56,885 nt of DNA from Catajapyx aquilonaris. Its lineage: Eukaryota. Where the stretch lies: positions 1-56,885 of the forward strand of contig JYFJ02002446.1 in NCBI GenBank assembly GCA_000934665.2. The letters run 5' to 3'. This document shows, in pieces, positions 17,506 to 56,885 of this stretch. The translations under genes were made by a program, and so were the position numbers. The notes under the pieces were generated by a model. The model was not told where the DNA came from. It searched no databases and saw only the letters and a program-made list of their open reading frames with translations. How positions within the stretch are numbered: position 1 is the stretch's first letter; each line of letters starts with the position of its first letter.

Positions 17506-17679
17506 CGTAAATGCCTGTAAAATTAAGCAATGGATACATTTTCGACTAGCATTGAACCATTGACAGCATTACCTTGCCTCCGTCCTTCTCTGGTCCAAAC
17601 CCTTCCAACAATGTCCTAACTCTTCCCAATTAACATCAATCAAAGAGACAGTGAGGCACTTCCAACGTAGGCTGAAGAA

Positions 17680-18117: not shown

Positions 18118-20085
18118 TCAGGGACAGTTATTACATCGACAGCTAACTTTCCGGATGCAGTTACTCTTTTTCCTGCTGGAGAAGTGCAGTATTTCCATCA
18201 AGAATGAAATGAGCGCCAGGAATATTCCTGCCAGCAACAAGCAAAAGGCTCCTTGCAGCTTCTCCATGGAGAATACTGCTTTATTCCCAATCGCCCGTCC
18301 GCCAGAGGTTCGTCGTTCTGCTTTCCTAGCGAGATGCCAAAATGTTCTGAATTTGTCCCAACGGTCGCTCTTTACGCCAAGACCAATGCTGTTGAATGCC
18401 TGCACCCAATAGTTGAAATTATTGGAGTACACGCTGTCTTTAGAGAAAGCTATTGACATGAAAAAGACAGCAAGAGAATCGTCGGATATGAATGATGGGA
18501 ATGCAGCGTCTATCGAAGGCATAGCATGCATAGCCCTGTAATATTTCAGAGTGGTTTCATCTGCTAGGCACACCCGATTTTCGTCACTGATAGTCAGCAC
18601 ACATTGCTTTTCCTTCATGATTTGTATTTTCTCAAATATTCCTTCGCTGAGGCCGTCATCACCAGCAGATTTCATAAACTCATACATGTATGACAATGTA
18701 TTGATCAGAAATTTAGACTTAATCAGTTCTCCAAAAGTGTGCGGGATTTTCTCTGTAGGAGGATACGTCAAGAAATAAAACAACTTTGCTTCGTAACCTG
18801 TCCCTGCGATGTTTGCAAAGAAATACCAAAAAATCAAGGCAATCATAAACGATAAACACATGTCACTGTTGACATCTGGGTACTGGTCAAGTGCCACTCG
18901 AGCCAGGTACTTAAAGCATCCAAACCAAGTACGGAATCTGAGCAAGAATGCACTGTGCTGTAGCTGTCGTTTGGAGAAGTAAAAGAGGAAACATCCGTAC
19001 ATGAGCAACGAAATGAAGAAGCAACACCAGGGTAAGAGTTGGTATGGATAGGCGATAATTAAGGGTGTGTTGATCTCCTTTGGATTTCGTGCAAGGAAGG
19101 CGACTCTGTCTTGATCGTGAGGAGTGATCATCCCGAACACCGCGCTTGTCACTTCTAACAATGGAATGCTGATCAAAAGTCCCAATTTTTCACTGCTGAC
19201 ATCCTGAACAGTTCCGAAAAATTTGCTCATATTTTTGGCAAGTTGAGATATTTCCAAATTTTCTGCACTCCATTCGAAATTGAGCGCCTCTCCTAAAAAG
19301 CATGTCATATGCAAGTGCAAATACACGTTAGAGTTGCAGTCTTTCGAACTAAACACCTCGTAAGCAAGTGCGTGGACCATTTTTCCATGAAAATTGTTAG
19401 CAGTGTCTTTCAACAACATATTTCCAAAAACATCTGTCATGCGGGTTGGGTTCACTAAAACCGATTCGATGGAAGGTTCACCATGAGAGCAGAAGAAGCA
19501 GACAGATGACAACTCGGTGGTTCCGTCTTCTTGAACTGCGATGCCTACTTTGTACTTCAGTTTCAAAGTAGGTCTTCGTGGCAGGTAATCTTCCTCTTCT
19601 GGTTTGTCCCTGATCCAGATCACAAACTTATCTTCCTTCTTGTTCACGACGACTATGCCTTCCTCAGGATCAAGCATCTCCTCCATAGCATCTTCGTAAT
19701 TCTCGAAGCAGGTGGTCACCAGGTTCACCAAGCACTTATACTGTCGAATATGGGTGAAAATAACAGGATCATGCTCGAGATCACTTGATCCCGACGACGA
19801 GCAGTCCCATCTGCTATGCTGAGAACCAGTATATTTGGCCAGAAGGACAGGCCTTCCTGCCAGGGACATGTTGGACAGGAGAAGCTCCAAATGTCTGGGC
19901 CAATCCCATCCGAGGTCATGGGTTACTGCCAGTGGACACTCCAGGTCAAGCAGGTCACCGTCCTTGAGCAAACTCCACATTGATTCAGTAACATGTTCCG
20001 GTAACTGCACCTGGATCACTGGGATGTCACACTGTACAATACTGAGAGAAAATATAGAAAACGTGAAAGTAAACAGCGGTTCCAT
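18118..20085 (-). CDS. Divergent ionotropic receptor (IR), subfamily A, intronless, 655 aa from the ATG at 20085
   Basis: Signal peptide, CFFC motif, M1 hydrophobic helix, M3-like GYEAKLFYF, P..F.EL motif, S2 lobe and final TM. Confidence 0.85.
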   Translation of the reverse strand: MEPLFTFTFSIFSLSIVQCDIPVIQVQLPEHVTESMWSLLKDGDLLDLECPLAVTHDLGWDWPRHLELLLSNMSLAGRPVLLAKYTGSQHSRWDCSSSGSSDLEHDPVIFTHIRQYKCLVNLVTTCFENYEDAMEEMLDPEEGIVVVNKKEDKFVIWIRDKPEEEDYLPRRPTLKLKYKVGIAVQEDGTTELSSVCFFCSHGEPSIESVLVNPTRMTDVFGNMLLKDTANNFHGKMVHALAYEVFSSKDCNSNVYLHLHMTCFLGEALNFEWSAENLEISQLAKNMSKFFGTVQDVSSEKLGLLISIPLLEVTSAVFGMITPHDQDRVAFLARNPKEINTPLIIAYPYQLLPWCCFFISLLMYGCFLFYFSKRQLQHSAFLLRFRTWFGCFKYLARVALDQYPDVNSDMCLSFMIALIFWYFFANIAGTGYEAKLFYFLTYPPTEKIPHTFGELIKSKFLINTLSYMYEFMKSAGDDGLSEGIFEKIQIMKEKQCVLTISDENRVCLADETTLKYYRAMHAMPSIDAAFPSFISDDSLAVFFMSIAFSKDSVYSNNFNYWVQAFNSIGLGVKSDRWDKFRTFWHLARKAERRTSGGRAIGNKAVFSMEKLQGAFCLLLAGIFLALISFLMEILHFSSRKKSNCIRKVSCRCNNCP

Positions 20086-21860
20086 TGTTTTGGTGTGGCC
20101 GATCTGTTCCTGTAACACTCACTCACTGGAATAATCCGACCTGAGATGAAGCGTGTGCTACCCACAAACAATGTCAGGAAAGTGAGCAATTTCCTTGAAC
20201 AACCAACTCCTCCTATCATTCCTGTAATAATTGTACGCTTCATATGTCACGGACGCATATGTTTCCACACCCTTCTCCGTAATGGTATCTTGCGAAATGT
20301 GCGCATAAACCATCCATATCCTATTATTACACAGGTTGGTGCACACACCCAAGACACCAAGTCACAAGGGAGGGGGAAAAAAACCTACCGGTTCATTATT
20401 GAACCCAGCAACAACACGAGTGGGTCAAAGTAGTAGCCTATCATTGGAGTTTGATGATTCATTATCCTAAGAGTTATTGGTAGGATCCACGCGATCGGTG
20501 TACTGTGTATACCTATTAAATACTGTATCTTGGAAGAGTATGGAAATGAACAATAAATTGAATTAAACATGTCTAAAACATTAATAAACTTTTTGCTGTA
20601 TGTCGTTTACATTATTTTTATTACACATTTTCATATTATTTCAGCCCTACCTCGGATCGAATGAATTTGGACAAAATGATTTTTCAAGACAATAATTATT
20701 AATCTTTTCTGTAGACTACCACACTGATTATAAAAGTGGTCTTTGTTAATTAAAGGTCTCTTTTAAAACTATCACAGTGTTGCCACTACCTTTCATCCAA
20801 CCCTCGTACATGTATACACTACAAGCTTTGGTACTACATGCGCACAAGAACATCCCTATCAACACAAATAATCATATGACAGCATAATAAATTCATCATA
20901 AGTTAGATACTAGTAGAGGTTGACTTGAAGCCGGTCAAAAAACAAGTCGAAAATGTGGAGGACATGGGGGAAATTTATGAGGTGGATGTCCAGAATCATT
21001 GACCAGTGCCAGTTCATTAAGGCATGCCACCTACCAGAGGCATTGTTACGGTATGTTGCAATTATTGCAGTAACTCTTTCCGAAGGTAGTTTGTTATTCA
21101 GCGAAGCATTGTTCCGTTGGTGACACTAAATGGCATCGACTGGTGATTTCTTGGAAAGGACTCGAGTTTCCAGCAAGGCAAAGTGGATGTAGATCAAAAC
21201 ACTTACTTATTAATATTTTACAAAGAGGTTTGGCGATGGACATACTTGCCGTTACAATTGAAATATCTATTGCAAAAAGCACATAACTTACCTTTAAAAA
21301 AATCACTTTTCAGGACCATTTCAGAACCACTATACTTTATGATTTTCATCGTACCTTGTAAATTTCCACAAACATAAGTGCTTCAAGTCATTTACAGAGG
21401 TAAATTTGAGCTTGTTTTCTCATTTATAAGTTGTATCGGAATTATAGCAGTGGTGGCAAGTTACTTTTAAAAATTATCAAGATTCCTTTTTCATGGCGTT
21501 CCTTTCTGCATATTTTGACGGAAATTATCAATTATTTCAGTGTCTAAAACATACAGTTTCACCCTGTGTAATGTGTACGCTGCCAATACAGTTGCATAAG
21601 TGATATGCTCCAGATAGGCCTATGACTCTGCATGTAAAAGGTCAAACACCTCTAGCACTTTTGGCGTCATATCGGGCGTGAAATTACAGCGCATGTAAGA
21701 TAATAAATTATTATCGAATAGGCTCCAAATTACGACAGTGCAACGTGATATATTATGTAGTTCCTTCAGTGCAGTCGCAGGAAAAGCACGCATTTTACAC
21801 ATCATTGCAATTTAGGTCGAGTAACATAGAAGCAACATTCGTCAGTTACTCCAAAGAAAA

Positions 21861-23828
21861 ATGCAAATTCTTTTGGCCATTGTCTTTGGTGCCTTGTCAT
21901 TTCCCTTGGGGCATTGCAGTGTGTCAGTGACTGAAGAGGGTCACGTGTTGGATGGACAAGTGACCGAGTCTGTTTGGCACCTTCTGCAGGGAGGGGACCG
22001 GGTGGACAGGGAGTGTCCCCTGGCCCTGACCCATGACCTCGGGTGGGGATGGCCTGCACATCTGGAGGTCATGGTGTCCAACATGTCCAGGGCAGGAAGA
22101 CCAGTGTTGCTGGCCAGATCCACTGGTTCTTCTCTGGAGAGATGGGACTGCTCCTCGGGGGGATCCAACAGCGATCCCGAAGGTGATCCCGTCGCATTCC
22201 AACCATCTCGACAGTACAAGTGTTTGGTCAACCTGGTCACCGTTTGCAGCCAGAACTACCAAGAAGCCATGGAGGAAGTGCTGGATCCTGAGGAAGGAGT
22301 GGTCAAGGTCAAGAAAACAAAGGACAAGTTTCTCATCTGGATCAGGGACGATCAGGATCAGAGATACCTGTTGGATAACCCAGCTTCGACGCTCAAGTTC
22401 AAAGCAGGTGTTGTCACCAAAGACAGTGACATCGCAGTGATCTCGTCAGTTTGTTTCTTCTGCAATCAGGGTGAACCAACTGTAGAAACTGTTATGTTGA
22501 ACACGAGCAATTTGCCACATGCACTGCTGACAATGATGTTTGAGGACACCGCTTATGACTTTCACGGAAAGATGTTAAGAACTATTTATTACGATCACTT
22601 CAGCTACGAAGAATGCCATCCGCATGATAGGTGGAACATTCTTCTCGTCTGCTTCATTGGCGAAGCTCTCAATTTCAAATGGAAAGCCGATTACGTGAAC
22701 CTTGCTGAAATTATTGGGGATATTGGCAAAGCACTTGAAGCTCTGGACGACCTTAGAAAGGGAAAGATATCGTTCATATTATTCTGTCCCAATATTGAAA
22801 TACTAAACACTGCATTCGATTTCATAACTCCACATTTTCAAGATCGCATTACGTTCCTGGTACGCAAACCCAAAATTATCGAAACGCCCTTGATAATTTT
22901 TTATCCGTACCAAAAAACCCCATGGTGCTGCTTTCTTTGTTCTCTATTTATGTACGGAGTCTTTTTGTTCATTTTGTCAAAACGACAGATTCGAACCAAT
23001 GATAACAATTTTTTGACTAGATTTCGCGCTGTTCTAGGAAGCTGTCAATATTTGGCACGAATCATGCTTGGCCAGGATCCAGGATGTAACACTAGAATGA
23101 ATCTTTCATTTATGATCGCCTTAATATCCTGGACTTATTTTTCAATGATAACTGGGACTGGTTATGTTGCAAAATTGTTTTATTTATTTGCTTACCCTCC
23201 AACGGAGAAAATTCCCCGGACTTTTCCGGAATTAATTGAATCCGAGTTTGGCATAAATATAATGGCATTTATTCACGAGTTACTTTTTGCAGGTGGTACA
23301 GACATGCTGGATGAAGCAGCTCTTAGAGTTACAGATAACATGGTCCTCGTGTCACAGGAGGATTGTGCACACTCGGTTTTAGCAGATAATGTAGTGTGCA
23401 TGTCCACTGTGGACCTGCTGGAGTACTACATGTATCTCCGATTTCTTTCGAGTGACGGGCAAATCAATACATTCATTTCCGATGATTCGTTTGGTTCATT
23501 CTACTTATCAATGGCCTTTTACAAGGACACCGTTTATTCCGCCAACTTTGACTTTTGGACGCAGGTGTACAACAGCATCGGCCTGTGGGCGAAAAGCCAC
23601 AGTTTCAATCAGTTTGTGAAACACTGGCGACTCGCGAGATTGGCGGAACAAAATGGATTAGACACTGATGTGAAAGGCGGAATAGTATTTTCTATGGAGA
23701 AGTTGCAGGGAGCCTTTTGCATACTTTTAGTCGGAATTGCATTGGGTCTAGTAGTCTTCTTGAAGGAAATTATTTGCCGCAAAAAAAATCTGCAGGAAAT
23801 AAAGGGCAGTTTACGTGTCACAACGTGA
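21861..23828 (+). CDS. Divergent IR, subfamily A, 655 aa
   Basis: Same architecture; paralog of 18118-20085 and 25996-27963. Confidence 0.88.
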   Translation: MQILLAIVFGALSFPLGHCSVSVTEEGHVLDGQVTESVWHLLQGGDRVDRECPLALTHDLGWGWPAHLEVMVSNMSRAGRPVLLARSTGSSLERWDCSSGGSNSDPEGDPVAFQPSRQYKCLVNLVTVCSQNYQEAMEEVLDPEEGVVKVKKTKDKFLIWIRDDQDQRYLLDNPASTLKFKAGVVTKDSDIAVISSVCFFCNQGEPTVETVMLNTSNLPHALLTMMFEDTAYDFHGKMLRTIYYDHFSYEECHPHDRWNILLVCFIGEALNFKWKADYVNLAEIIGDIGKALEALDDLRKGKISFILFCPNIEILNTAFDFITPHFQDRITFLVRKPKIIETPLIIFYPYQKTPWCCFLCSLFMYGVFLFILSKRQIRTNDNNFLTRFRAVLGSCQYLARIMLGQDPGCNTRMNLSFMIALISWTYFSMITGTGYVAKLFYLFAYPPTEKIPRTFPELIESEFGINIMAFIHELLFAGGTDMLDEAALRVTDNMVLVSQEDCAHSVLADNVVCMSTVDLLEYYMYLRFLSSDGQINTFISDDSFGSFYLSMAFYKDTVYSANFDFWTQVYNSIGLWAKSHSFNQFVKHWRLARLAEQNGLDTDVKGGIVFSMEKLQGAFCILLVGIALGLVVFLKEIICRKKNLQEIKGSLRVTT

Positions 23829-25339
23829 CACACCAGTCACCACACTTGTCTTAGGAAGTAAAATATGTACGTCATATTTATTTTCCAAAAAAAAGTAGAC
23901 GATAACAATGCTCCCGTATAATTTTGTGCGCCTGAAGTAATAATGAGGAATAATTACACCGTAAATAACCTATTACAACCAAAGTTGATACTGTGAAGGG
24001 TTGCATAACATTACGGTCGCTATACCTATAGTGTTCAGAAAACTGAATATAATAAATTTGAGACCTGTTTTGGTGATTTCAAATTTAAGAAGAGAATATT
24101 TTTGTTATATAATATATAAAATGTAATATGCTGTATATAATGATAAGTTGATATTATGTAAGGAGTGCTTATTCTTGTTTGACCATCCTGAATGATATTT
24201 CTAAATATTGTGATCCACGACACCAAATTATCCCTTCTCAGTCAGGCACCCTAGTTAAGAGCAGATAATACTACTTTACACATGGATTTTAAATTGTATA
24301 CTCACAGTTACGGATTAAATAAATTATGATGCAAATATGCAAAGGTGAAAAAAACGAGCCTTATTGTACATTTTTGTCCAAGATCCGCAGCAGTGAATTT
24401 CTTTCATACTGAATTTTCAAAGACAAAAATTAATATTTATTACGATGGGCTGAGTCCCTCAATTTGTGCCAGTTATATAAAATTGAAAAAGCATGGTTTT
24501 CGTAATATACCGGAATAGCCTCAAGAATATTCAGCATTGAAACGTGGCCTGGAATCAATAGTGCATTATTATTACTGCCAAGATGTAAATGTATGTGAAA
24601 TTGGGCGTATAATTACTCTCGGCAGAGTTGTCGATAAGGGAATTTCTAAAGGTCTTGGTCCGGGGGGGTATGTGGTGCAACTAGACGGAATCGTCTGATA
24701 CTTGATTGGACACCAGCTGATTTGCACCAAGGTGGCACTCATGACGTTGATTTCTGAACTGTGAACAGGTTTGTACAGTTTCGCAATGATGCATTAATTG
24801 GTGCTGATTTTTTTTTCTAGAATGTACTAAGCAAGCAAGGGGCCAATAAGTTACATTAAGTCAATTTTAGGTGCCAAAGAGAATGATTTTTCCTCATTAC
24901 CCCATACTTAGCCCTATTAGTTATTACTTACTAACAAATTTATTTCAGAGTGTATGACTCTAGTCTACATTAAGATAGGTTTTTTGATACCCAAAAAATG
25001 CCAATTACTCCGGTTAACATATATTATTAACACAAAGAATACAATAATACTAGCACATTATGTAAATGTTCCGGAAATATTTTAATTTCGTTGATAAGTG
25101 ATATAAATGAAGTACTTTTTACCATAAAAATGCCAATTACTCGAAAACTATACGTGAGGGAGTCAAATGGTTAACAAATTTGAAATCAGGACAGAGAGTT
25201 CCATAGGAATCGCACACTCATGTATGCGCCAAAAAAATTGTAATTTTGTCGATCAGTGTTACATATACATTGACGGAAGTTCATTGCTACCATAAAATGA
25301 TGATTACTCAAAAACGTGGATAGAGATTCGATGGGTTCA

Positions 25340-25395: not shown

Positions 25396-25995
25396 AGCAA
25401 AACCCTTCACAGGAAATTCAATGAATAAAGACTGTTTAACTATTAAAGACTCCTTGGCACTGTAGTTCCTCCCTCCGAAGGTCGTTTGTCATTGAGTGAA
25501 GGTGACTCTAAATGACATCGACTGGTGCTTTCTTGGAAAGGACTATAATTGCCAGCCAGGCAAAGTGTGTGGCAAGACACTTACTACTTATTAATTACAA
25601 AGAGGTTTGGCAATGGACAGACCTACTGTTCCGGTAGTTATAATGCAAGGGATTATTTTTGGATATATCACGTGATGAATTATTGAGACATAGCTGACGA
25701 AACTAACAAGATGCGGAGGGGGAGAGGAGAGAATTGTTTATTATTAATAATAGCCTTACAGAGGTGGTGTATGTAATATTGGGGGTACGGTCACAGCTGA
25801 ATGGATAATGATAAAGATTACTCCGCGTGCTGCTATACATGCGCAGGTATAGTACAAGGTCTCGGATTTGCAGAGTAGGTCTAATAGTGTACATTATGCA
25901 ATAATTCCATCAGAGCAGTCTCAGGAAAAGTACGCGAATAATCTTGCTTCAGAACATTGAGAAACGTAAAAGTACAGTACGTAGCTACAGAAAAG

Positions 25996-27963
25996 ATGCT
26001 CCACCTTCTTTTGGCCATTGTCTTTGGTGCCTTGTCCTTTCCCTTGGGGCATTGCAGTGTGTCAGTGACTGGAGAGGGTCACGTGTTGGATGGACAAGTG
26101 ACCGAGTCTGTTTGGCACCTTCTGCAGGGAGGGGACAGGGTGGACAGGGAGTGTCCCATGGCCCTGACCCATGACCTCGGGTGGGGATGGCCTGGTCACC
26201 TCCAGGTCATGGTGTCCAACATGTCCAGGGCAGGGAGGCCAGTGTTGCTTGCCAGATCGACTCGTGGTTCTAATCGGAGGAGGTGGGACTGCTCTTCGAC
26301 TAGTGACCCCGAGGGTGATCTAGTTTCAATCCAAGCAACTCGAAACTACAAGTGCTTGGTCAACATGGTGACCACTTGCAGCCAGAACTACAAAGAGGTC
26401 ATGGAGGAACTTTTGGATCCGGAGGAAGGAGTGATCACCGCCAAGAAAACAAAGGACTCGTTCTTAATCTGGATCAGGGACGATCCGGATCAGAGATTCC
26501 TGTTGGATAAACCGGCTTCGACTCTCAAGTTCAAAGCAGCTGTTGTCACCAAAGACAGTGACATCCCAGTGATCTCGTCAGTTTGTTTCTTCTGCAATCA
26601 GGGTGAACCAACTGTAGAGACTGTTATGTTGAACACGAGCAATTTGCCACGTGCACTGCTGACAATGATGTTTGAGGACACCGCTTATGACTTTCACGGA
26701 AAGATGTTAAGAACTATTTATTACGATCGGTTCAGCTACGAAGAATGTCATCCACATGTTTGGTGGAACCTTCTTCCCGCCTGCTTCATTGGTGAAGCTC
26801 TCAATTTCAAATGGAAAGCCGATTATGTGAACCTTGCAGAAATGATTGGTGATATTGGCAAAGCACTAGAAGTACTGGAAGAAATCACAAAGGGCACTAT
26901 TTCGTTCATATTATTCTGTCCCAATATTGAAATAATGAATACTGTATTCGATATCATCACGCCACATTTTCAAGACCGAGTTACGTTCCTGGCACGTAAA
27001 CCCAACATTATCGAAACGCCATTTATAATTTTTTATCCGTATCAAATAATCCCCTGGTGCTGCTTTTTCTGTTCGTTATTTATGTACGGAGTATTTATGT
27101 TCATTTTGTCCAAACGACAGGTTCGATATAATAATTTCTTGGTTAGATTCCGCACTGTTCTGGGCAGCTGTCAATATTTGGCACGAGTAATGCTTGGCCA
27201 GGATCCAGGATACAACACTGAAATTCATATTTCATTTATGATCGCCTTAATATTCTGGACGTATTTTTCAATGATAACTGGGACTGGGTTTGTTGCCAAA
27301 TTGTTTTACTTCTTTGCATATCCTCCAACGGAGAAAATTCCTCGGACTTTTCCGGAATTAATTGAATCCGAGTTTGGCATAAATACGATGACATTTATGC
27401 ATGAGTTATTATTTGCGGGCGATGCTACTGATGAAGACATGGACGCAACAGCTCTTAGAGTTAAAGAAAATCTGGTCGTCGTGGCACAGGAAGAATGTGC
27501 ACAGCCAGTTTTCGCAAAAAATACAGTGTGCATGGCCACTGTGGACCTTCTGGAGGGCTACCTTCCTTCGAGTGATGGGCAAATCAAGACATTCATTTCA
27601 GACGATTCTTACGCTGCATTCTACATGTCAATGTCCTTTTCCAAGGACAGCGTTTATTCGTCCAACTTCAACTTTTGGGCGCAAGTGTACAACAGCATCG
27701 GTCTGGCTGTAAAGAGCCATCGTTTCAGTGAGTTTGTAAGACACTGGCGACTTGCGAGACTGGCTGAACGAAATGTATTAGACACTGATGTCAAAGGTGG
27801 AATAGTATTTTCGGTGGAGAAGTTGCAGGGAGCATTTTTCATACTTCTATTTGGAATTGCATTGGCACTAGGCGTATTCCTGAAGGAATTTTTTTGCAGC
27901 GAGAAACTATGCTGCAGGAAAGGACATTATTTTAAGCATCGCAAAGTGACTCCCCATTCATGA
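25996..27963 (+). CDS. Divergent IR, subfamily A, 655 aa
   Basis: ATG at 25996 gives a signal peptide matching the paralogs. Close paralog of 21861-23828. Confidence 0.88.
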   Translation: MLHLLLAIVFGALSFPLGHCSVSVTGEGHVLDGQVTESVWHLLQGGDRVDRECPMALTHDLGWGWPGHLQVMVSNMSRAGRPVLLARSTRGSNRRRWDCSSTSDPEGDLVSIQATRNYKCLVNMVTTCSQNYKEVMEELLDPEEGVITAKKTKDSFLIWIRDDPDQRFLLDKPASTLKFKAAVVTKDSDIPVISSVCFFCNQGEPTVETVMLNTSNLPRALLTMMFEDTAYDFHGKMLRTIYYDRFSYEECHPHVWWNLLPACFIGEALNFKWKADYVNLAEMIGDIGKALEVLEEITKGTISFILFCPNIEIMNTVFDIITPHFQDRVTFLARKPNIIETPFIIFYPYQIIPWCCFFCSLFMYGVFMFILSKRQVRYNNFLVRFRTVLGSCQYLARVMLGQDPGYNTEIHISFMIALIFWTYFSMITGTGFVAKLFYFFAYPPTEKIPRTFPELIESEFGINTMTFMHELLFAGDATDEDMDATALRVKENLVVVAQEECAQPVFAKNTVCMATVDLLEGYLPSSDGQIKTFISDDSYAAFYMSMSFSKDSVYSSNFNFWAQVYNSIGLAVKSHRFSEFVRHWRLARLAERNVLDTDVKGGIVFSVEKLQGAFFILLFGIALALGVFLKEFFCSEKLCCRKGHYFKHRKVTPHS

Positions 27964-29085
27964 GGAAGTAAAATATATAACTGACATTTTTTTCTCCATA
28001 AAAACCAGAGCACCTAATAAACATCAGTGAAAATATCATATTTTGAGCATCTTATTGTATATCCTGTGTGTCTCAAAGTTAGTAATAAATATGACGGTGT
28101 TAACGACTACTTTATAGACTCTTCTGACCCTTTCAAGGCCTCATTCGAGCATGTTGCAAGATTCCAATGCGAAGGTCGCCAATTGTCATTGTGGTGCTAG
28201 TGTGATGGTCTGTTGGTTCAACTAAACTGGATCGTCTGAAACTTTAATGGACATCTGCCGATTTTGCAACAAGGCAGAGTGGGTGGCATTTATAACGTCG
28301 ATTTCTGAAAGGTTTGCACAGTTTCGCAATGGAACACGCATTGGCGATTCTTTTCTAGAATACACTATAAGCGAACAAGGAACCAATCAGAGAATGATTT
28401 AGTTTCCACATCAAAATTTGACACATGGAGAATTTTATGATAAAAATCATTGCAAAATTTAATTATTTTTTGATTACTCATAACACGTCAGATAAGAAAG
28501 GAAATTAAAAGGACGGATCATCAAATTATGTAGATTTCAAAGGCAGCACGGTGAAGTTTTACCATTTTGACATTATTCTGGCCAAATCACCTGATCTATG
28601 ACCTTGCCCCCAACACACATAACCTTACCTTGTGTGGAAATCAGCAGTTAAAACTGCACACAATGGAACATTAGCGTAATAAGTTTTCCGAACCCAGTTT
28701 ACTTCCGAAGAAAATAATACGTCGTCAGGTGTGATTAGTAAGTCACTTCCTGTGGCAATCTCGCCAAGTAAACTAACAAAGCATAATTTACTCTAAACCG
28801 AGCGAAGGCACGCAATAAGAGAAGTATGTCCCAATGGCCTCAGTGTCACAATGGGGCCATTACTTTTCAAGTCCTGACCGCTCCAACGTCACTCTTATCC
28901 TCTCACTTTTGCGAATCACCCGCCGCAACAATAGCCAATTCACTCGGCCAAACAATCCGTGACAAATATTGTGCCAGATGCACAGAAATAGGACTTTCTG
29001 CATACGCACTACTAGTCTCTGAATGGAATGCTAGGAAGTCGTGCCTTCGAAAGCACCGGATTGAGACCGAGCCTCTACTAAGACG

Positions 29086-29530
29086 ATGCTGGGTCGACCT
29101 TGCCTGATTGTGGCCCTCTGCTTGGCCCTGGGTCTCGCCCTGGGTCAGGCCTCGCCCCTGCAGCCTGGACGGGAAGAATTACGTCAAAAGAGAGGTGAGA
29201 TGTGACGCAACATACACGCAAATTGATATGGCAGAAGACAGAAGATGGAACTATCGCTATTCTCATTGGATTTCAGAAGCAAAGCATCATCACCGTACAC
29301 CGCCACCACCACCGCCGCCGCCACCTCCAGAAACCTTGACCTCTGGTCTGCACAAGAAGCTGAGCGATGTGGGAAAAGGACTGGAAGGACTGGACGGACA
29401 CGGGCAGAATTCAAAGGTCAGGCATTTTTCGCAACTAATCTGTTTTCTTCGGATTTTTGGAAAAGAATCCAGTCCTAACTAGCGCAATTCGTTTCAGGCC
29501 GCCCCTTTGGCGTCTGTGCTCGGAAGATAA
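29086..29530 (+). CDS. Small secreted prepropeptide, 93 aa. Exons 29086-29194, 29277-29416, 29498-29530
   Basis: MLGRPCLIVALCLALGLALGQASPLQPGREELRQKR-EAKHHHRT(P)10ETLTSGLHKKLSDVGKGLEGLDGHGQNSK-AAPLASVLGR*. Introns of 82 and 81 nt are GT..TTTCAG with phases 1 and 0. Branch-point-like CTAAC at 29475. Confidence 0.75.
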
Positions 29531-29699
29531 ACATATTACAATATTTATGATTATGTGGTCAATGATGACCACATATATATGATTTTATGCAGTAAATTAG
29601 AATGATCATACAATGCAACAACCAAATCATATCAAAATACTGACCGTCGGTTAATTTATAATAAGATTCACATTCGCCTAGTTTAGGATTTTGTCTGTA

Positions 29700-30170
29700 T
29701 CACTGGACAGTAGGCTATTATCTTGCAAACATGAACTGAAATATTTTTATAAAATGGATCCAATCAGTTCCGGAAATGTCAGCTTAATATTTTCCATGGT
29801 ATAGGATCAATAGAGAAATAAAATACTGACGAGCTTTTTATGCCACAACAATTATTACGATTTCGAAATAATCCCAAAAATAGTAGAGCTATCGTGAAAT
29901 GACACGGACATTGTAGTTTTTTTCCCTCCTGACCAAGTGTCACACACTTCCGTTCAATGTACTGAATCTGACCAAGAAGACATGGAGTCCTGAATCGCAG
30001 ACGTTTGGACAGATGAAACAGGAACCAACCGTATAAATGAGAAGAGAAGTAAAGAATCATCACCAAGACACACGATCACCAAAAGTGCCATTGGATTCAC
30101 GAACCAAAAAAAGTGACTAGGTCTTGAATATATATGGACATATCGAATCAAGCACGATCGTCACTAATTT
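29700..30170 (-). pseudogene. Degenerate IR (subfamily A) remnant, M1-M3 region
   Basis: Across frameshifts: LYGWFLFHLSKR, RFRT, QY..R..TLGQ, FTIALLF, TFPELIGS. Confidence 0.65.
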
Positions 30171-32253
30171 CAATTTTCCTACGAAAGGCGCGAGGGAATT
30201 AAAGAATTACTTAACTTCTGCCCCTGACCGTGACCTTCTGAAATTCTCTTATCGACAACTCTACCTACAGTAATTATACGTCAAATTATTTAACACATAC
30301 CAAGTACACCCGGTCAGTAATGATTTCATTATTGGTTTTCCGGCCTCTCTACTCAGCCATTGTTTTAATGCTAAATATTAACAATTCCATTGAATTTTTT
30401 GGGGGAAATGGCAAAATCATTGTATTGCTTTACAAATTGTTATTATTTCATCATGAATATTCTGCTCTTGCAAAATATATTTCCTAAATTATGTTGTGGC
30501 ACGATGTAATTTAATTTTGGGCTCTAAGTAATGGCCTTTAGCTCAGCTCTACATGTAAGGTGACCTTCTGAAGTTTTCTCATGAAAAAAGTAAGATGTCG
30601 TTGTGTGGGCGGAGCATAAGGTAAGATTATACATATTACATAATATTACTGACCTGCACATGATGAAATGACCTTGAGTCATACATGATAGATCTATAAG
30701 GTTAGACTTCTGGGAACTACAGTATGTCAATTGCCTCAGTAGCAGTAGCCGAGAAATGTACTATAGGAAAAGACAGTGGGAATTATTGCTGTTGTGGTTC
30801 CAACAAGAAAGGATTACAATAATATTTTTCTTGATTTAAGCAGTTTCCCGAGTCGAATCTTGCACTGTAGAAAGGCCTCTCTCATAACATGTGGAAAATA
30901 AATATTTTCGTCTCAGCGAAAAATGGCTGGGGTCATTATTTCGCTACCCGTATTCTCGGGTGCTTGGGGCCCAGCCAGTGCAGAAATGTTCGTAGAAGAC
31001 ATTAAATATTAATGTGACACCAACAGACCATCACATCACGCCACCACAACAGACGACATACGTATAGATGACTGTATATAACTGCGACATACCCGAACGA
31101 AGCGTCACACGTGTCGAGGTCACATAAATTTCGGTTACGTAATACAGGGTGACCCTAATGATTGGACACATAGGTAGGCCCTAATAGTAATTTATTGTTG
31201 GTTGCCAGATTTCCTGTTGTCAGCCAACAATACAAAACAATTATCCATGCGAAGACCTATACACATGTGGTATACAGTCTAAAACTCTCGGCGCCATCTG
31301 AGGTCAAATAAAAAGGGCTTGTTGTGGACGATCCTGTTGGACGAATCCTGATGAAATCTTGCACTTATAATAACTACTATAGTAGTACATTTATTAATAT
31401 CGCAGTAATTATGCAAAAATTGTCAGATATTGCATTCGGCTAAAATTAAGAACTTCTCCCATGTATAGCATGCTATGAGCAACTCTATTTCACTATTAGG
31501 ATTAACTTTTGTAACCAAAATCCTCATAATAAATTGATGAACCGTACTATAAAAGTCGTGTCGAATTGAGACAGTATTGCGAATGTCTGTGAATGACAGG
31601 GACACTGCCATGAGCAAAAGAATAATAAATGGCGCAGAAGTTAATGGCAGAATCCATGCTCATTTCCGCTCAGTATACAAGCCTGCACAGAACCGCCAGA
31701 AGTCCATCCCTCTATGTGTCAATAATGGCGCAAGACTCCTCATGCACTGCTCAATATACTATTTCTCTATACGTTATTTATTTTATTCCATCAGAACATG
31801 TCTCTGCACACTCATCAACACATTGTGAGTGAATTAATAATCACATTTTCATACAAGAGAGCAAACCTTAATGTGAAAATTATGTGATGTACGCCATTTG
31901 GTTAGCTATAGAACTTACATAAAGTTGTACGGCGGGAGAGTCAGATTGTCCATCTCTTACAAGCAATAATGGGAGAAGATGGATTTTATTCGCATTAACT
32001 GAGGTTAAGAATATTATATCAAAAAGTGAAACTCAGTCTCAGTCAAGCCATTTTTGAGATATTATGCCGGGACATAGAATTGGTATGAATGGTGGTTACA
32101 TAACATAACGACTAATGAGAAACGCATTTGTGTTAATAAAAAATAAATACTTGCAACACAGAATTACAATAATTTTGGTACTGGACAGGGAATGCTGATG
32201 ATCAGTCGACAAGAGACGGTGTCCACTGCAACATTTTTTGACGCATCTTCATG

Positions 32254-34209
32254 TTATCTGGCTCTGCAGCAGAAGCACGTCTCAAAGAACAACACCAACG
32301 CAGCAATAGTCAGTCCAAACAACCACACCTTGAACATGACCAAAACATGGTCAATAGTCAACACTTGCACTGCACTGACGCGATTCTGCTCTTCTCTGGC
32401 TCTGATTTCACTCAAACTGGTCAAAATATTCATGTAATGCTCATCGGACATGAATTTTGGTTGAGCACCTCCCTCTATAGCAAACCGAAAGACGTTGGTC
32501 AGCAAGTGGTACATAACAGTGTTGTCTCGTGATGTACCAGACCCCGTGTACGACCAGTACATGTCGTCCTCTGAATAACGAACAATCGCGCGACCCAAGG
32601 TGTCTACGTATCCGTGCCTTTCCATGTCCATTATGAAATTGAAGCCTAAACAGACCACTGATTCGTGGTAGGTTTTGTCCAAGCAGCTGGCAGCCTTCCT
32701 CACCGTCTCGACTCTCTCAAACACGTCGTTCATGAGAGTCTTGTCTGCAACGGACACTGCTGTGTGCAGAAAGAAGTATTGCAGCGAGTCCATCTCAATC
32801 TTCCAGTTGGCATCGAGCAATTCGTGGAAATTGACTGGAACAAACTCTTCTGGAGGCGACGACAGCAGAGCCGTGAATTTCGCGGTGTATCCGGTGATGA
32901 CCACTCTGGACAGAAGCATTGTGGCGATGGCCAGTAGGAAGAAACACCAGGCTTTCGATGGGTATTCCCTCGATTGCTCGACCAATTCCCTCACTATTGT
33001 GTCGATGGCTCTGTACCAACTCAGATTCAATGTTTTGCTCTCAGGCGCATTTGCAGTAAAGAAGTGAACCACAACCACGCAAATGTACATGGCCATGACA
33101 AGCACGATCCAAAACAGAGCTGTGTATGGTCTGTGCAGAAGGCTCAGATCCCAGCTGATTTCGCTCATAGGGTATCGAGTCAGAAATGCGACGTACACAT
33201 ACGCGTATGGCCATGTAAGGAGAGTGTACCGGACAGTGTCCTCCGAGAATAATATTAATGTTCCTAAACCCGCCTTTCCGGACACTAGTTCTTGCACCAC
33301 TCCTTGCCACGAGCCATTTTCCAACCTCTTGTCGAAATCCCCGTTTTCTGGATACACCTTGTTGATGACCATGTCCACTTTTAGGGCCTCCGCGGTTGTG
33401 AGGGCAGCGCGATCCAATATGTTGAGGCGAATCTCACCGTGCTGCTCTTTCACCTTCCGAGCCAATTCCAGGTCGATGTCGTAGTAGGAAGACACCGTGA
33501 CTTTAATGCCGTTCAAGTGAGCGTCGATGTTCCTGAAAAAGGGATCAGAACTGTTCTCTTTCGTCAGACTTCGCACATCTGGTCGTCCTCCTTGTCCGCA
33601 GTAGACGCAGGCAGTTTCGACCCGAATCTGTCCCGAATCAGTGGTTGTGAACACCTTCAATCTGAGAGCAGTTCCAGGTGGGGACGTCATCACCCGATGC
33701 ACTTGTTCCGTGTCTGGTGATTGGAAATGGACTAGGAATCGATCCTGACCCGGCACCAGTTTGGTTCTAGATGCAGTGTACATCAATAGCTGGGAAAATA
33801 GCGACGGTGTCGAAGGAATCAGAAGATGTAAAGTGCAGGGCATACTGGTCCATTCCCTGGATAGGATTTCGGGTGGGACAGTCCTGAAGTCCAGCAACTC
33901 CTCTTGGTTTTTGAGCCAGGGAAAGTCTCGATGCTTGAACGGAAATGATGTCATCCGAACTGCGAACGATGGCAGGTACTTGTCCGACTGTCCCCTCAGA
34001 AGCGCATGGACTAGGCCAGGCCAGGTCATCAGGTCGGTCGAAGTGACCAGTGCACACGACCGCAGGTCTTCGCTTCGGAGGATCAGACTGACCACTTCGG
34101 TTGCAGCACATTCCTCTTCATTCAAACACTCCCCAATCCGAAGAAAACCAATTTTAATCCCACTGATTACGGCCAAGAGTGTGGCAAAAACTAGTGTTAT
34201 TGGCTTCAT
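32254..34209 (-). CDS. Divergent IR, subfamily B, 651 aa
   Basis: S1 motif ENGSWQGVVQELVSGKA, M3 GYTAKFTALL, 3 TM helices, intronless. Confidence 0.9.
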   Translation of the reverse strand: MKPITLVFATLLAVISGIKIGFLRIGECLNEEECAATEVVSLILRSEDLRSCALVTSTDLMTWPGLVHALLRGQSDKYLPSFAVRMTSFPFKHRDFPWLKNQEELLDFRTVPPEILSREWTSMPCTLHLLIPSTPSLFSQLLMYTASRTKLVPGQDRFLVHFQSPDTEQVHRVMTSPPGTALRLKVFTTTDSGQIRVETACVYCGQGGRPDVRSLTKENSSDPFFRNIDAHLNGIKVTVSSYYDIDLELARKVKEQHGEIRLNILDRAALTTAEALKVDMVINKVYPENGDFDKRLENGSWQGVVQELVSGKAGLGTLILFSEDTVRYTLLTWPYAYVYVAFLTRYPMSEISWDLSLLHRPYTALFWIVLVMAMYICVVVVHFFTANAPESKTLNLSWYRAIDTIVRELVEQSREYPSKAWCFFLLAIATMLLSRVVITGYTAKFTALLSSPPEEFVPVNFHELLDANWKIEMDSLQYFFLHTAVSVADKTLMNDVFERVETVRKAASCLDKTYHESVVCLGFNFIMDMERHGYVDTLGRAIVRYSEDDMYWSYTGSGTSRDNTVMYHLLTNVFRFAIEGGAQPKFMSDEHYMNILTSLSEIRAREEQNRVSAVQVLTIDHVLVMFKVWLFGLTIAALVLFFETCFCCRAR

Positions 34210-34877
34210 GTTTGCAGTCTAAATGTGAAGGCCATTCTGTTACTTGTTACGTCTTAATGAGACAAGTCGTAATTTATTAACAGCACATATCATTTGTCAA
34301 AAAGTAATGAACGTGGCATTTATGACCTATAAATGGGGCAGATTTTAGCATAGTTATGGTCTACTGAAGTTCCACGGTAGTTAACCACATGAAAAAAGGA
34401 CATCTTTCAAACTGTGTTTTAAATTATTTAGTGCCATATTCTGATGATTTCTAAAAATGACCAGTTACATTGATTCGTTCAGACACGAGATCCATTATGT
34501 TAAAAATACTGATGGCGACATTACGCAGACGAAATGGCCCGGGGATGTCATTTGGCAAGAATATTTAACTCAACAAAATACGAAGCTACTATTCGTGATA
34601 TTGCAGCAAAAATCATTTTCGCGTAGATTATTATCATTGCATATTATTGCCCGCTTGGTATTTTCGTAGCAGTGCGTGTGACGTAACGACATGTGTGTTT
34701 GCCCGAGCGATTATTGCTGACTGAGTGCGTACTTTTAATGACAGTCTGTGCCTCAGTTTATTACCCATGGCATACTAATGATTCTTTGACAAATCGTCCG
34801 CTGTTAATAAATAATTAAGACCCGTCTCATTAAGACATGACAAGTGACAGAATAGCCTTCACATTTGGGTTGCAAAC

Positions 34878-36833
34878 ATGCAGATATTAACACTAGTTTT
34901 TGCCACTCTCTTATCAATAATTGGTGGGAAGCACAGTGGTTCTCTTCTGGTTGGGGAGTGTTTGAATGAAGAGGAATGTGCTGCATCTCAAGTGGTCAGT
35001 CAGATCCTCCGAAGAGAAGACCTGTGGTCGTGTGCATTGGTCACTTCCACCGACCTGATGACCTGGCCTGGTCTAGTCCATGCGCTTCTGAGGGGACAGT
35101 CGGACAAGTACCTGCCATCGTTCGCAGTTCGGATGACCTCATTTCCGTTCAAGCATCGAGACTTTCCCTGGCTCAAAAACCAAGAGGAGTTGCTGGACTT
35201 CAGGACTGTCCCACCCGAAATCCTCTCCAGGCAATGGACCGGTGTGCCCTGCACTTTGCATCTTCTGATTCCTTCGACACCGTCGCTATTTGCCCAGCTA
35301 TTGATGTACACTGCATCTAGAACCAAACTGGTGCCGGGTCAGGATCGATTCCTAGTCCATTTCCAATCATCAGACACGGAGCAAGTGCATCGGGTGATGA
35401 CGTCCCCACCTGGAACTGCTCTCAGATTGAAGGTGTTCACAACCACACATTCGGGACAGATTCGGGTCGAAACGGCCTGCGTCTACTGCGGACAAGGAGG
35501 TCGCCCAGATGTGCGAAGTCTAACGAAAGAAAACAGTTCGGATTACTTATTCAGCAACATCGACGCTCACTTGAACGGCATTAAAATCACGGTGTCTTCC
35601 TACTACGACTTCGACCTGGATGTGGCTCGGAAAGTGAAAGAGCAGCACGGTGAGATTCGCCTCGACTTCATGGAGCGCGCTGCCATCATAATCGCGGAGG
35701 CCCTGAAATTGGACATGGTCACCAACAAGGTGTATCCAGAAAACGGAGATTTCGACAAGAGGTTGGAAAACGGCTCGTGGCAAGGAGCGGTGCAAGAACT
35801 AGTGTCCGGAAAGGCGGGTTTAGCAACAGTAATATTCTTCTCGGAGGACACTGTCCGGTACACTCTCCTTACGTGGCCATACGCGTATGTGTACGTCGCA
35901 TTTCTGACTAGGTACCCGATGAGCGAAATCAGCTGGGATCTGAGCCTTCTGCACAGACCATACACAGCTCTGTTTTGGATCGTGCTTGTCATGGCCATGT
36001 CCTTTTGCGTGGTTGTGATTCACTTCTTTACTGCACATGCGCCTGAGAGCAAAACATTGAATCTGAGTTGGTACAGAGCCATCGACACAATAGTGAGGGA
36101 ATTGGTCGAGCAATCGAGGGAATACCCATCGAAAGCCTGGTGTTTCTTCCTACTGGCCATCGCCACAATGCTTCTGTCCAGAGTGGTCATCACCGGATAC
36201 ACCGCGAAATTCACGGCTCTGCTGTCGTCGCCCCCAGAAGAGTTTGTTCCAGTCAATTTCCACGAATTGCTCGATGCCAACTGGAAGATTGAGATCGAGT
36301 CGCTGCAATACTTCTTTCTGTACAGAGTAGTGTCCGTTGCAGACAAGACTCTCATGAACGACGTGTTTGAGAGAGTCGAGACGGTGAAGAAGGCTGCAAG
36401 CTGCTTGGACAAAACCTACCACGAATCAGTGGTCTGTTTGGGCTTCAATGTCGTAATGGACAGAGAAAGACACGGATACATAGACACCTTGGGTCGCGCA
36501 ATTGTTCGTTATTCAGAGGACAACATGTACTGGTCGTACACGGCGGCTGGTACATCACGAGACAACACTGTTTTGCACCACTTGCTGACCAAAGTGTTTC
36601 GGTTTGCTATAGAAGGAGGTGCTCTAGAAAAATTCCTTTGCGATGAGCAGTACATGAATATTTTGGCCAGTTTGAGTGAAATAAGAGCCAGAGAAGAGCA
36701 GAATCGCGTCAGTGCAGTGCAAGTGTTGACTATTGATCATGTTTCGGTCATGTTCAAGGTGTGGTTGTTTGGACTGACAATTGCTGTATTGGTATTGTTC
36801 TGTGAGACGTGCTTCTGCTGCAGAGCCAGATAA
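34878..36833 (+). CDS. Divergent IR, subfamily B, 651 aa (inverted duplicate of 32254-34209)
   Basis: Same motifs, with long identical tracts shared with the minus-strand copy. Confidence 0.9.
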   Translation: MQILTLVFATLLSIIGGKHSGSLLVGECLNEEECAASQVVSQILRREDLWSCALVTSTDLMTWPGLVHALLRGQSDKYLPSFAVRMTSFPFKHRDFPWLKNQEELLDFRTVPPEILSRQWTGVPCTLHLLIPSTPSLFAQLLMYTASRTKLVPGQDRFLVHFQSSDTEQVHRVMTSPPGTALRLKVFTTTHSGQIRVETACVYCGQGGRPDVRSLTKENSSDYLFSNIDAHLNGIKITVSSYYDFDLDVARKVKEQHGEIRLDFMERAAIIIAEALKLDMVTNKVYPENGDFDKRLENGSWQGAVQELVSGKAGLATVIFFSEDTVRYTLLTWPYAYVYVAFLTRYPMSEISWDLSLLHRPYTALFWIVLVMAMSFCVVVIHFFTAHAPESKTLNLSWYRAIDTIVRELVEQSREYPSKAWCFFLLAIATMLLSRVVITGYTAKFTALLSSPPEEFVPVNFHELLDANWKIEIESLQYFFLYRVVSVADKTLMNDVFERVETVKKAASCLDKTYHESVVCLGFNVVMDRERHGYIDTLGRAIVRYSEDNMYWSYTAAGTSRDNTVLHHLLTKVFRFAIEGGALEKFLCDEQYMNILASLSEIRAREEQNRVSAVQVLTIDHVSVMFKVWLFGLTIAVLVLFCETCFCCRAR

Positions 36834-38024: not shown

Positions 38025-38688
38025 GCTTCAAGTGGAACTATCAGAATAGGGGGAAATGAAGGTGCACATGCTAATAATGTCTTTAAAAGTAAGGTTTAGT
38101 GCGGCTCAAAATACTTGGAATTATCTGCCATTTCCACTCCAATTATGCAAGGTTTCTCGCACTTTGTGTGGCCATTTCAAGAGCTTAAGAATATTTGCAA
38201 TAATTTTACGAGTTTGAAGCTCATGTTTGCACAATTCCAGGGAACATGACATTTCAGAGCCGTGACGTATGTCAAAATTTGTTGCCCAGTGTAATTAGTC
38301 TATGGTTTATTTAGTCCTCTTTCGATAGTTGGAGTACATAGCATCCTTAGTCGCAGAAACTACAGTATACTCATCTGGTTGGGAAATATCATGATACTTG
38401 TAGAATAAAATTAAACCGGTAATATTTCACCGTACCTCTTGGGCTCTCTTGCGGACTGTAATATTATCGTATCATATAAGAAGCCGCACTGTGTAGGCGT
38501 TAGTACGTATGTCATGTGGAGCATGAAATTACAGTGTCGCGGATGAAAACATCGAACAAGCCCCGTGTGTCTTAGGGGTCTCGATTTTTCACGAGCATTC
38601 AGGTCTCTCATTGCAAGCGAAGGAAAAGTACGCGTTTTACACATCATCATTGAAGAAACAGGCAACAAGTACCGTTGCTGTAGACAAA

Positions 38689-40602
38689 ATGCAATTTCTT
38701 TCTGCCATTGTCTTCGGTGCCTTGTCCTTTCCCTTGGGGCATTGCAGTGTGTCAGTGACTGGAGAGGATCACGTGTTGGGTGGACAAGTGACCGAGTCTG
38801 TTTGGCACCTTCTGACAAAGGGAGGGGACAGGGAGTGTCCCCTGGCCCTGACCCATGACCTCGGGTGGGGTTGGCCTGCACATTTGGAGGTCATGGTGTC
38901 CAACATGTCCAGGGCAGGGAGACCAGTGTTGCTGGCCAGATCGACTGGGTCTCATCTGGAGAGATGGGACTGCTCATCGGGGGGATCCAACAGTGATTCC
39001 GAAGGTAATGATCCCATTTTCTCAGTCTACCCAGCTCGTGACACCAACAAGTGCGTGGTCAACCTTGTGACAACCTGCTACGAAAACTACGAAGACACGA
39101 TGGATGAGCTCCTTGATCCGGAGGAAGGAGTGGTTGCGGTGAAGAAAAATCAAGCAAAGTTCCTCATCTGGATAAGGGACGAAGCAGAGGAAGATTTCCT
39201 TCTGCAGAACCCAGCTTCGAAGATCAAGTTCAAAGTGGGCATCTCTGTTGGTCCTAATGGAACCACCCAGCTGTCTTCGGTATGCTTCTTTTGCGACGAG
39301 GGTGATCCGGTCATTACATCTGTCTCGGTGAATTCAAGCCTCTTAACAGCCACTCTTGGAGAAATGCTGGTAAGGGATACGGCAAACAACTTCAACGGAA
39401 AACTTTTTCGCACCCTTGCATATATGAACTACAGTTATGAAGATTGCGAGAGCGAGAGAGTGGAATTCCACTCCTTTGCCACTTGTTTCGTGGGAAAAGC
39501 TCTTAATTTCCGGTGGTATGCGGAGGACATAAATTTGGAGGAACTACCAAAAAACATGAGTAAAATATTTGCGATGGTAGAAGACATCACAACGGGAAAG
39601 GTTCTATTTGCACATAGCTTTACGTTACTGGAAGTGACGAACGCAGTATTTGACATGATGACTGTACATTATCAAGATCGTGTCACGTTCCTTGCGCGCA
39701 TACCGAGGGAAATAGATACATCACTTCTGATCGTGTACCCATACCAAGTGGTCCCCTGGTGTTGTCTATTCGTGTCCTTACTCGCCTATGGAGGCTTCAT
39801 GTTTCTCATTTCTAAACGCCAGATTCAATCCCACGGTTTCTCGACAAGATTTCACACTCTATTTGGAAGTGTCAAGTACTTGGCGCGAGTGACACTTTCG
39901 CAGCATCCAGGCGGTAATACTGGAATAAGTGCGTCATTAATGGTTGCTCTATTGTTCTGGTATTACGCCGCAATCGTAGTTGGCACAGGTTATACAGCAA
40001 AGCTGTTTTATTTCCTCAATTATCCTCCAGTGGAAAAGGTCCCTGCAACATTTTCTGAACTGCTCCACTCTGATTTTTTGATAAATACATTGGGTTATTT
40101 TTATGCTGTATATGTGTCTGGCCATGAAGTAAATCCTGCTCTACTGGATAAAATCAATGTTGTGGGAGGAAAAAGTTGCGTTGTGAGTGTAATGGAAGAA
40201 AATCAGGTGTGCTTGTTGGAGTATACTAAGTTGATGAGTGATATGTTCCAATATTTACCCTTACATGATGGTGAATTTGAAGCATTCATATCAGATGATT
40301 CTCTTCTTGTCTATCATTATGCATTGGCATTATCCAAAGACAGCATCTACTCAGAAAACTTCAATTTTTGGGTGAAAGTGTACAACAGCATTGGTCTTCG
40401 CGTGAAACATGAACGGCTTCACACATTCACACATTTATGGCAACGGGCAAGATTGGCAGAACAATCCGGATCACTTCAGTACAAAGGTGGAATCGTGTTT
40501 TCAATGGAGAAGCTGAAGGGATCCTTTTTCGCACTGTTGGTCGGTTGTGCATTGGCACTCTTTGCATTCTTGAAGGAGATCTCCACTATGCACAAAATTT
40601 AA
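38689..40602 (+). CDS. Divergent IR, subfamily A, 637 aa
   Basis: ATG at 38689 gives the signal peptide. CFFC motif, GYTAKLFYF, final TM. Confidence 0.88.
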   Translation: MQFLSAIVFGALSFPLGHCSVSVTGEDHVLGGQVTESVWHLLTKGGDRECPLALTHDLGWGWPAHLEVMVSNMSRAGRPVLLARSTGSHLERWDCSSGGSNSDSEGNDPIFSVYPARDTNKCVVNLVTTCYENYEDTMDELLDPEEGVVAVKKNQAKFLIWIRDEAEEDFLLQNPASKIKFKVGISVGPNGTTQLSSVCFFCDEGDPVITSVSVNSSLLTATLGEMLVRDTANNFNGKLFRTLAYMNYSYEDCESERVEFHSFATCFVGKALNFRWYAEDINLEELPKNMSKIFAMVEDITTGKVLFAHSFTLLEVTNAVFDMMTVHYQDRVTFLARIPREIDTSLLIVYPYQVVPWCCLFVSLLAYGGFMFLISKRQIQSHGFSTRFHTLFGSVKYLARVTLSQHPGGNTGISASLMVALLFWYYAAIVVGTGYTAKLFYFLNYPPVEKVPATFSELLHSDFLINTLGYFYAVYVSGHEVNPALLDKINVVGGKSCVVSVMEENQVCLLEYTKLMSDMFQYLPLHDGEFEAFISDDSLLVYHYALALSKDSIYSENFNFWVKVYNSIGLRVKHERLHTFTHLWQRARLAEQSGSLQYKGGIVFSMEKLKGSFFALLVGCALALFAFLKEISTMHKI

Positions 40603-56730: not shown

Positions 56731-56885
56731 TGGGGAACTAGCCTTCATTTTGGAAACTACATAATAAATTCGCCCATATTTTTTGGATTTTTTTTGGCAT
56801 ATTCCGCTTTAAGATATCAGTTCCCGTTCCGGAGTAATTGGGGTTTTTATGTAGGGAAATGGTGACGTCACTGTTTCCCTAGAAA

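Follow-up and report, generated by a model that had tools for sequence, protein, structure and literature searches.

Evidence for a spliced three-exon gene encoding a putative secreted, probably amidated peptide within a receptor gene cluster of Catajapyx aquilonaris

Does the space between two receptor genes of Catajapyx aquilonaris hold a split gene for a secreted, amidated peptide? An original prediction for contig JYFJ02002446.1 held that it does and placed a three-exon gene for a 93-residue precursor inside an IR cluster. We analyzed the same 56,885-nt stretch of DNA (here called the window). The peptide gene stands alone in a 4.3-kb gap between two intronless ORFs, 25942-27963 (+) and 32254-34218 (-), and no other ORF of at least 60 codons with an obvious meaning was found in 30300-32250. 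The flanking ORFs belong to a set of eight iGluR-derived receptor ORFs of the smell/taste type, all of them intronless and 612 to 691 codons long:

18118-20118 (-), iGluR-derived receptor ORF
21825-23828 (+), iGluR-derived receptor ORF
25942-27963 (+), iGluR-derived receptor ORF
32254-34218 (-), iGluR-derived receptor ORF
34848-36833 (+), iGluR-derived receptor ORF
38527-40602 (+), iGluR-derived receptor ORF
44408-46441 (+), iGluR-derived receptor ORF
54899-56737 (-), iGluR-derived receptor ORF

These ORFs fall into at least two divergence classes, with either 19 to 21% or 47 to 79% identity to the first ORF. All five receptor ORFs scanned gave sub-threshold matches to the Pfam domain Lig_chan (E values of 2.7e-5 to 4.1e-3, all below the gathering score). 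A profile built from the eight ORFs matched ionotropic glutamate receptors in the PDB, the best being GluD1 (E = 4.4e-18; profile positions 277-657), which bears out the predicted IR setting. We saw no functional link between the peptide gene and the receptor genes around it. A 419-codon open frame at 16309-17568 (-) also lies among the receptor genes and has a weak, sub-threshold match to a C2H2 zinc finger (E = 0.0028).

The three coding pieces, 29086-29194, 29277-29416 and 29498-29530 on the plus strand, join exactly into 282 nt, that is, 93 codons and a TAA stop. Both introns are short and canonical, with the donors GAG|GTGAG (intron 1) and AAG|GTCAG (intron 2) and the acceptor TTTCAG| at both. 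Upstream, the frame is closed by a TGA at 29062, and no ATG intervenes before the main start. Without splicing, the three parts sit in different frames, exon 1 within an open stretch of 46 codons and exon 2 within one of 124 codons, so the gene is missing from a plain ORF list; this explains why the signal peptide frame was absent from the ORF track, as had been pointed out. The model, which a spliced contig from a public sequencing run (X1) matches, has the following features:

28963..29085 (+), 5' untranslated part (contig piece 28963-29194; 28963 is the contig edge, which need not be the transcription start)
29086..29194 (+), exon 1, coding part: ATG, hydrophobic signal-type segment, short pro-region and R-Q-K-R; contig-covered
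29086-29151 (+), signal-type hydrophobic segment, residues 1-22
29182-29193 (+), R-Q-K-R, residues 33-36
29195..29276 (+), intron 1, 82 nt, GTGAG...TTTCAG, phase 1; contig 82 letters short between 29194 and 29333
29277..29416 (+), exon 2: E-A, His triad, ten Pro and predicted amphipathic helix; contig piece 29333-29414, with 56 further letters that fit 29277-29332
29285-29293 (+), His triad (H-H-H), residues 40-42
29300-29329 (+), ten Pro codons, residues 45-54, mixed CCG/CCA/CCT
29339-29392 (+), predicted amphipathic helix, residues 58-75
29417..29497 (+), intron 2, 81 nt, GTCAG...TTTCAG, phase 0; contig joint, GT..AG
29498..29530 (+), exon 3, coding part: ten residues ending in L-G-R; contig-covered
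29522-29524 (+), Gly codon of the exon 3 end
29525-29527 (+), Arg codon of the exon 3 end
29528-29530 (+), stop codon TAA
29531..30360 (+), 3' untranslated part to the contig limit (end at about 30360, computed from the contig's length)

The final base of exon 1 (29194) is the first base of codon 37.

Is this model transcribed and spliced? Run X1 contains 0.68 of the sampled words of 28900-29850. Across 28500-30300, it gave a single contig of 1,235 nt with a word depth of 48.6 and 0 differing letters. The contig aligns in three pieces, 28963-29194 (record positions 1-232), 29333-29414 (289-370) and 29496-30300 (371-1175), and has 60 further letters after record position 1175, i.e., past 30300. 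At the second joint, it skips 81 nt bounded by GT..AG, and a shift of +2 places the joint exactly at 29416/29498 (depth of 48.6, with 82 letters on its shorter side). Where the genome has 138 letters between the first two pieces, the contig has 56; the 82 nt that are absent equal the length of intron 1, and the 56 intervening letters equal the length of 29277-29332. No joint row is listed for intron 1, because the CCN run at 29294-29332 falls under the repeat mask. Intron 2 is thus supported directly by the contig, and intron 1 is supported by length arithmetic. At 29194/29277 and 29416/29498, where the prediction had proposed to map RNA-seq reads, the contig lacks both introns. Because the contig is spliced, we infer that run X1 contains RNA-derived sequence.

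The transcript has a leader of at least 123 nt and about 830 nt after the stop, and an AATAAA lies at 29817, within its 3' part. Near 30360, the contig probably ends at a break in the assembly rather than at a poly(A) site, as a dispersed repeat has one of its copies just before this point (30221-30337, about 117 bp; 75% identical to 24553-24665 on the minus strand). That the gene is real and transcribed seems to us almost certain.

Next, we considered whether the ORF in this transcript has the properties of a coding sequence. Length alone does not set it apart from chance, as ATG-initiated ORFs of 93 and 97 amino acids also occur on the reverse strand of the transcript; other features do. The frame stays open through two splices, and base composition follows the model, with G+C contents of 0.62, 0.57 and 0.61 in the three coding exons, 0.415 and 0.395 in the two introns and 0.36 in the 3' part. 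Codon usage was scored with a table built from the window's eight receptor ORFs: the log-likelihood was +11.6 for the proposed frame and -16.5 to +6.0 for the other five. The ten prolines are encoded by an irregular mix of CCG, CCA and CCT rather than by a single repeated triplet. Tandem Repeats Finder nevertheless reports a period-6 repeat at 29298-29329, coding for the Pro run, and a period-9 repeat of 2.7 copies at 29376-29399, coding for the G-L-x stretch of the helix. As both segments are coded by short tandem DNA repeats, parts of the peptide (the Pro run and part of the helix) may have arisen by slippage rather than by fine tuning. A high-copy repeat, which was named with the prediction as something that would speak against a gene, is not what we see: the window holds no second copy of the gene, and no look-alike was found in the other DNA stretches compared.

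The leader carries three upstream ORFs (uORFs), all of which close before the main ATG:

28978-29022 (+), uORF 1, 14 codons
29023-29034 (+), uORF 2, 3 codons
29028-29081 (+), uORF 3, 17 codons

These uORFs may regulate translation of the peptide transcript. The third starts with M-L-G, like the main ORF, and ends 4 nt before the main ATG.

What kind of protein does the frame encode? The N-terminus has one Arg in its start, at position 4, followed by a hydrophobic core of about 16 residues; hydropathy (9-residue window) exceeds 1.5 for residues 5 to 17 and peaks at 3.3. Gly and Ala occupy positions -3 and -1 of the proposed signal cut, ahead of S-P. By these rules of thumb (hydropathy and the residues at -3/-1), the N-terminus would qualify as a signal peptide, in agreement with the cut before S-P that had been suggested. 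R-x-K-R is recognized by convertases, and a Gly with a basic residue after it signals amidation. A signal-type start combined with R-x-K-R, an X-Ala pair and a Gly-Arg end is the arrangement of convertase-cut, C-terminally amidated secretory precursors. Here, R-Q-K-R occupies residues 33 to 36, E-A occupies residues 37 and 38, and the chain ends in L-G-R-stop, so all of the processing motifs are where they had been placed. The exon 2 product also contains the expected K-H-H-H-R-T, directly after E-A (H-H-H at 40 to 42), and then the ten prolines (45 to 54). In composition-preserving shuffles, R-x-K-R within the first 25 post-signal residues occurred at a rate of 0.0115 and a terminal G-[KR] at a rate of 0.018; in this post hoc test, whose outcome is clear, both occurred together in 28 of 200,000 shuffles.

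Cutting after R-Q-K-R and removing G-R would leave a product of 55 residues, or 53 without E-A, in line with the predicted size of about 53. The 55-residue version would contain no Cys, 11 Pro, 7 Leu, 6 Gly, 5 Lys, 5 His and 1 Arg. Its calculated net charge is +2.45 at pH 7 and +5.96 at pH 5.5. An AlphaFold2 model of the exon 2 product (single sequence; 46 residues) has a helix at positions 21 to 38, corresponding to precursor residues 58 to 75, with a mean pLDDT of 80.4. In this 18-residue segment, hydrophobic residues are spaced 4-3-4-3 and the hydrophobic moment is 0.43, a value that 114 of 10,000 shuffles of these residues reach; the segment overlaps the stretch of 18 residues with the highest moment in the whole protein (0.455). 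The segment described earlier as amphipathic-looking is thus predicted to be an amphipathic helix. It also contains four Gly and two acidic residues, and its mean hydrophobicity is near 0.

We then looked for relatives with exon 2 (46 of the 93 residues) or the open frame containing it as the query. A word-index protein search in the size class of 68 to 217 amino acids gave 35 candidates, none of them at an E value of ≤0.01. Searching 1,835,955,588 representatives with phmmer gave a single match at an E value of ≤0.001 (1.6e-4), which we judged spurious: the target is a 780-amino-acid Lys/Glu/Leu repeat protein that matched in five stretches, and we rejected it as compositional. The ESM Atlas had no usable match to the exon 2 query, and none of 598 pattern matches in JGI metagenome contigs was confirmed. 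The best PDB match by sequence had an E value of 0.064, Foldseek against the PDB gave 0 matches, and VIA-align wide gave a best Z of 2.7, to unrelated helices. Pfam returned just a sub-threshold poly-Pro match of the exon 2 product to an unrelated plant domain, and a 16-residue stretch of the peptide had no match in the full text of papers. With exon 2, then, sequence, profile, metagenome and fold searches found no true relative, in keeping with the earlier remark that the peptide was not recognized as one of a known family.

A control search puts this result into perspective. The neighboring receptor ORF 25942-27963 also had 0 matches at an E value of ≤1e-5 among 5,499 candidates from a 5.8-billion-protein collection. 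The lineage is therefore poorly sampled, the status of the peptide gene as an orphan is weakly supported, and the empty peptide searches say little about conservation in close relatives. All nine N letters of the window form two gaps, at 2313-2320 and 50043, within long C or G runs, and these gaps look like assembly artifacts. Weak poly-Pro tblastn matches beside them come from the C/G homopolymer runs, and we rejected the idea that the two N runs mark related poly-Pro exons.

Taken together, we consider it somewhat better than an even chance (a probability of roughly 0.55) that the gene encodes a 93-residue prepropeptide from which a secreted, convertase-cut, probably amidated peptide of 53 to 55 residues is made. 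Secretion, cleavage, E-A trimming, amidation and effector activity are here all read from motifs. The hydrophobic N-terminus (about 22 residues) would bring the chain into the ER and then be removed, and an enzyme of the furin/prohormone convertase type would cut after R-Q-K-R (residue 36). A carboxypeptidase would take off the terminal Arg, and the exposed Gly would be converted to a C-terminal Leu-amide by peptidylglycine alpha-amidating monooxygenase; the E-A pair might be trimmed afterwards by a dipeptidyl peptidase. Free of Cys, the product would consist of a His triad, a rigid ten-proline rod, an amphipathic helix rich in Gly and, at its end, a short hydrophobic segment carrying the amide. 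Its role is a more tentative matter: it may be an extracellular effector of the host defense or secretory tissue kind, a possibility that we favor because of the apparent lineage restriction, the low complexity and the histidine-driven charge switch (from about +2.5 to about +6 on mild acidification, attributed to the five histidines).

Several observations weigh against the processed-peptide reading. A membrane-active peptide would be expected to carry more net charge at neutral pH, and the glycines and acidic residues of the helix point the same way. There is a single E-A pair only, whereas classic dipeptidyl peptidase substrates carry several X-A pairs. Tandem DNA repeats encode the Pro run and part of the helix, as is typical of low-complexity sequence born by slippage, and in the contig the main start comes after three upstream ATGs. 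The ORF takes up only 282 of the 1,235 transcript letters, ORFs of equal length exist on the opposite strand, the transcript was found in one public run only, and the searches returned no relative and hence no evidence of selection on the frame.

There are three rival explanations. The peptide could be the precursor of a neuropeptide or peptide hormone, made in neuroendocrine cells and acting via a receptor, in which case the amidated C-terminal part would form its active core. A signal peptide, a convertase site and a Gly-basic end are the hallmark by which neuropeptide precursors are predicted, and Cys-free, helical, amidated arthropod hormones of 30 to 46 residues exist in the CRF-like and calcitonin-like diuretic hormones. 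However, low-complexity segments coded by repeats are unusual in hormone cores, and the ...V-L-G-R end matches no arthropod amidated family known to us, being unlike the FGL-, PRL-, RF- and RY-amides. Such peptides are also usually widely conserved, yet phmmer found no true match among 1.84 billion representatives. The motifs of the peptide are likewise absent from one supplementary file (8,023 characters) of a neuropeptide survey covering non-pterygote hexapods (PMC4770511), a single file of that survey. We regard a neuropeptide precursor as unlikely, and a conserved neuropeptide as less likely than an extracellular effector. A bolder version of the processed peptide, which we think rather improbable, would be a lineage-specific peptide family, largely born from tandem repeats, with a new modular design (His head, Pro10 spacer, Gly-rich helix and amidated tail) that serves as a pH- or metal-switched host defense peptide or as a new arthropod hormone. 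After dipeptide trimming, the His triad would then be a copper/nickel-binding (ATCUN-type) or pH-sensing head.

The repeat-derived Pro10 run and Gly/Leu repeats, and the lack of a fold beyond one predicted helix, speak for a second rival, a secreted protein of low complexity that escapes processing to an amidated peptide. It might belong to cuticle, glue, saliva or seminal fluid, for example, and its R-Q-K-R and G-R would be incidental. This reading has to treat as accidental two processing motifs that lie where a prepropeptide needs them, a joint occurrence that the shuffles seldom reproduced, and 93 residues are very few for a structural protein; we consider it improbable, more so than a neuropeptide precursor. 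Lowest in our ranking, close behind, is an ORF that is functionally untranslated or very young (de novo), with a real RNA and a peptide without selected function. The searches made found no homologues, the length is within chance given the reverse-strand ORFs of 93 and 97 amino acids, and the three upstream ATGs, the low-complexity segments derived from repeats and the long untranslated 3' part all count in its favor. But the frame is preserved across two introns, exons and introns contrast in G+C, the proposed frame has the best codon score, and the prolines are spread over three synonymous codons. A signal-type start co-occurs with two correctly placed processing motifs, and the missing homologues are weak evidence given that the neighboring receptor ORF is also without relatives.

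The processed secreted peptide would be no surprise in kind, as lineage-specific secreted peptides are numerous in arthropod genomes. Annotation based on ORFs routinely overlooks small secreted-peptide genes with introns, and this one, backed by a spliced transcript, can join the gene set of a poorly sampled arthropod. The new gene model is sound, and the orphan prepropeptide that it describes has the canonical signals for processing. The presence of a Pro10 run and a G-L-x repeat, both coded by tandem repeats, inside a precursor with canonical signals bears on the origin of new secreted peptides. If the amidated peptide of 53 to 55 residues exists, it would offer a new template for host defense or signaling peptides.

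Among known systems, the closest in general layout are the precursors of insect antimicrobial peptides such as Drosocin/Buletin, apidaecin and the attacins. Like the precursor here, they are small and of the secreted type and carry a convertase motif, with an X-Ala pair placed at the N-terminus that the cut creates. As with these and cecropin-type precursors, the predicted product lacks Cys, is rich in Pro and partly helical, and has a Gly-basic end as an amidation signal. Insect antimicrobial peptide genes are often lineage restricted. Exon 2 queries of Pfam and phmmer found no sequence similarity to these families. Peptides of the apidaecin/drosocin type are short and strongly basic, with spaced motifs of the Pro-Arg-Pro type; a product with ten Pro in one block, one Arg among 55 residues and a charge of +2.45 is not of this type. 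Nor does the product resemble a cecropin, given its moment of 0.43 to 0.46, a mean hydrophobicity near 0 and a low charge, and exon 2, the part scanned, matched no Pfam family. The kB-like site GGGRNWYYYY has 0 matches in the 1 kb upstream (27964-28963) and 28 in the window, versus 25.6 expected; since this consensus comes from other taxa, the counts carry no information.

The His triad recalls the HHH peptides of mosquito saliva, which are small and secreted and for which Zn chelation and antimicrobial action have been proposed (PMC3878727). The family is described there as mosquito specific; compared by description only, the triad and an unassigned function are all that it has in common with our precursor. 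When the exon with the His triad was run through phmmer against 1.84 billion representatives, no HHH peptide protein was returned.

The signal-type start, the convertase site and the terminal amidation signal are shared with neuropeptide prepropeptides. The PP-fold layout of NPY and pancreatic polypeptide consists of a polyproline stretch, an amphipathic helix and an amidated tail, and our peptide would follow the same order, with polyproline, a predicted amphipathic helix and a predicted amidated tail. Unlike NPY and pancreatic polypeptide, it has no R-F- or R-Y-amide end (it ends in ...V-L-G-R) and is longer. We regard a PP-fold as unsupported, since no PP-fold protein was among the matches of Foldseek or VIA-align.

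The histidines invite a last comparison, with the His-rich metal-binding host defense peptides (histatins, clavanins and piscidins). As in these, a His cluster would lie at the predicted N-terminus, and the charge would rise on acidification, although His makes up only 5 of the 55 residues. The ATCUN motif requires His at position 3 of a free N-terminus, a geometry that the peptide would acquire only once E-A had been trimmed.
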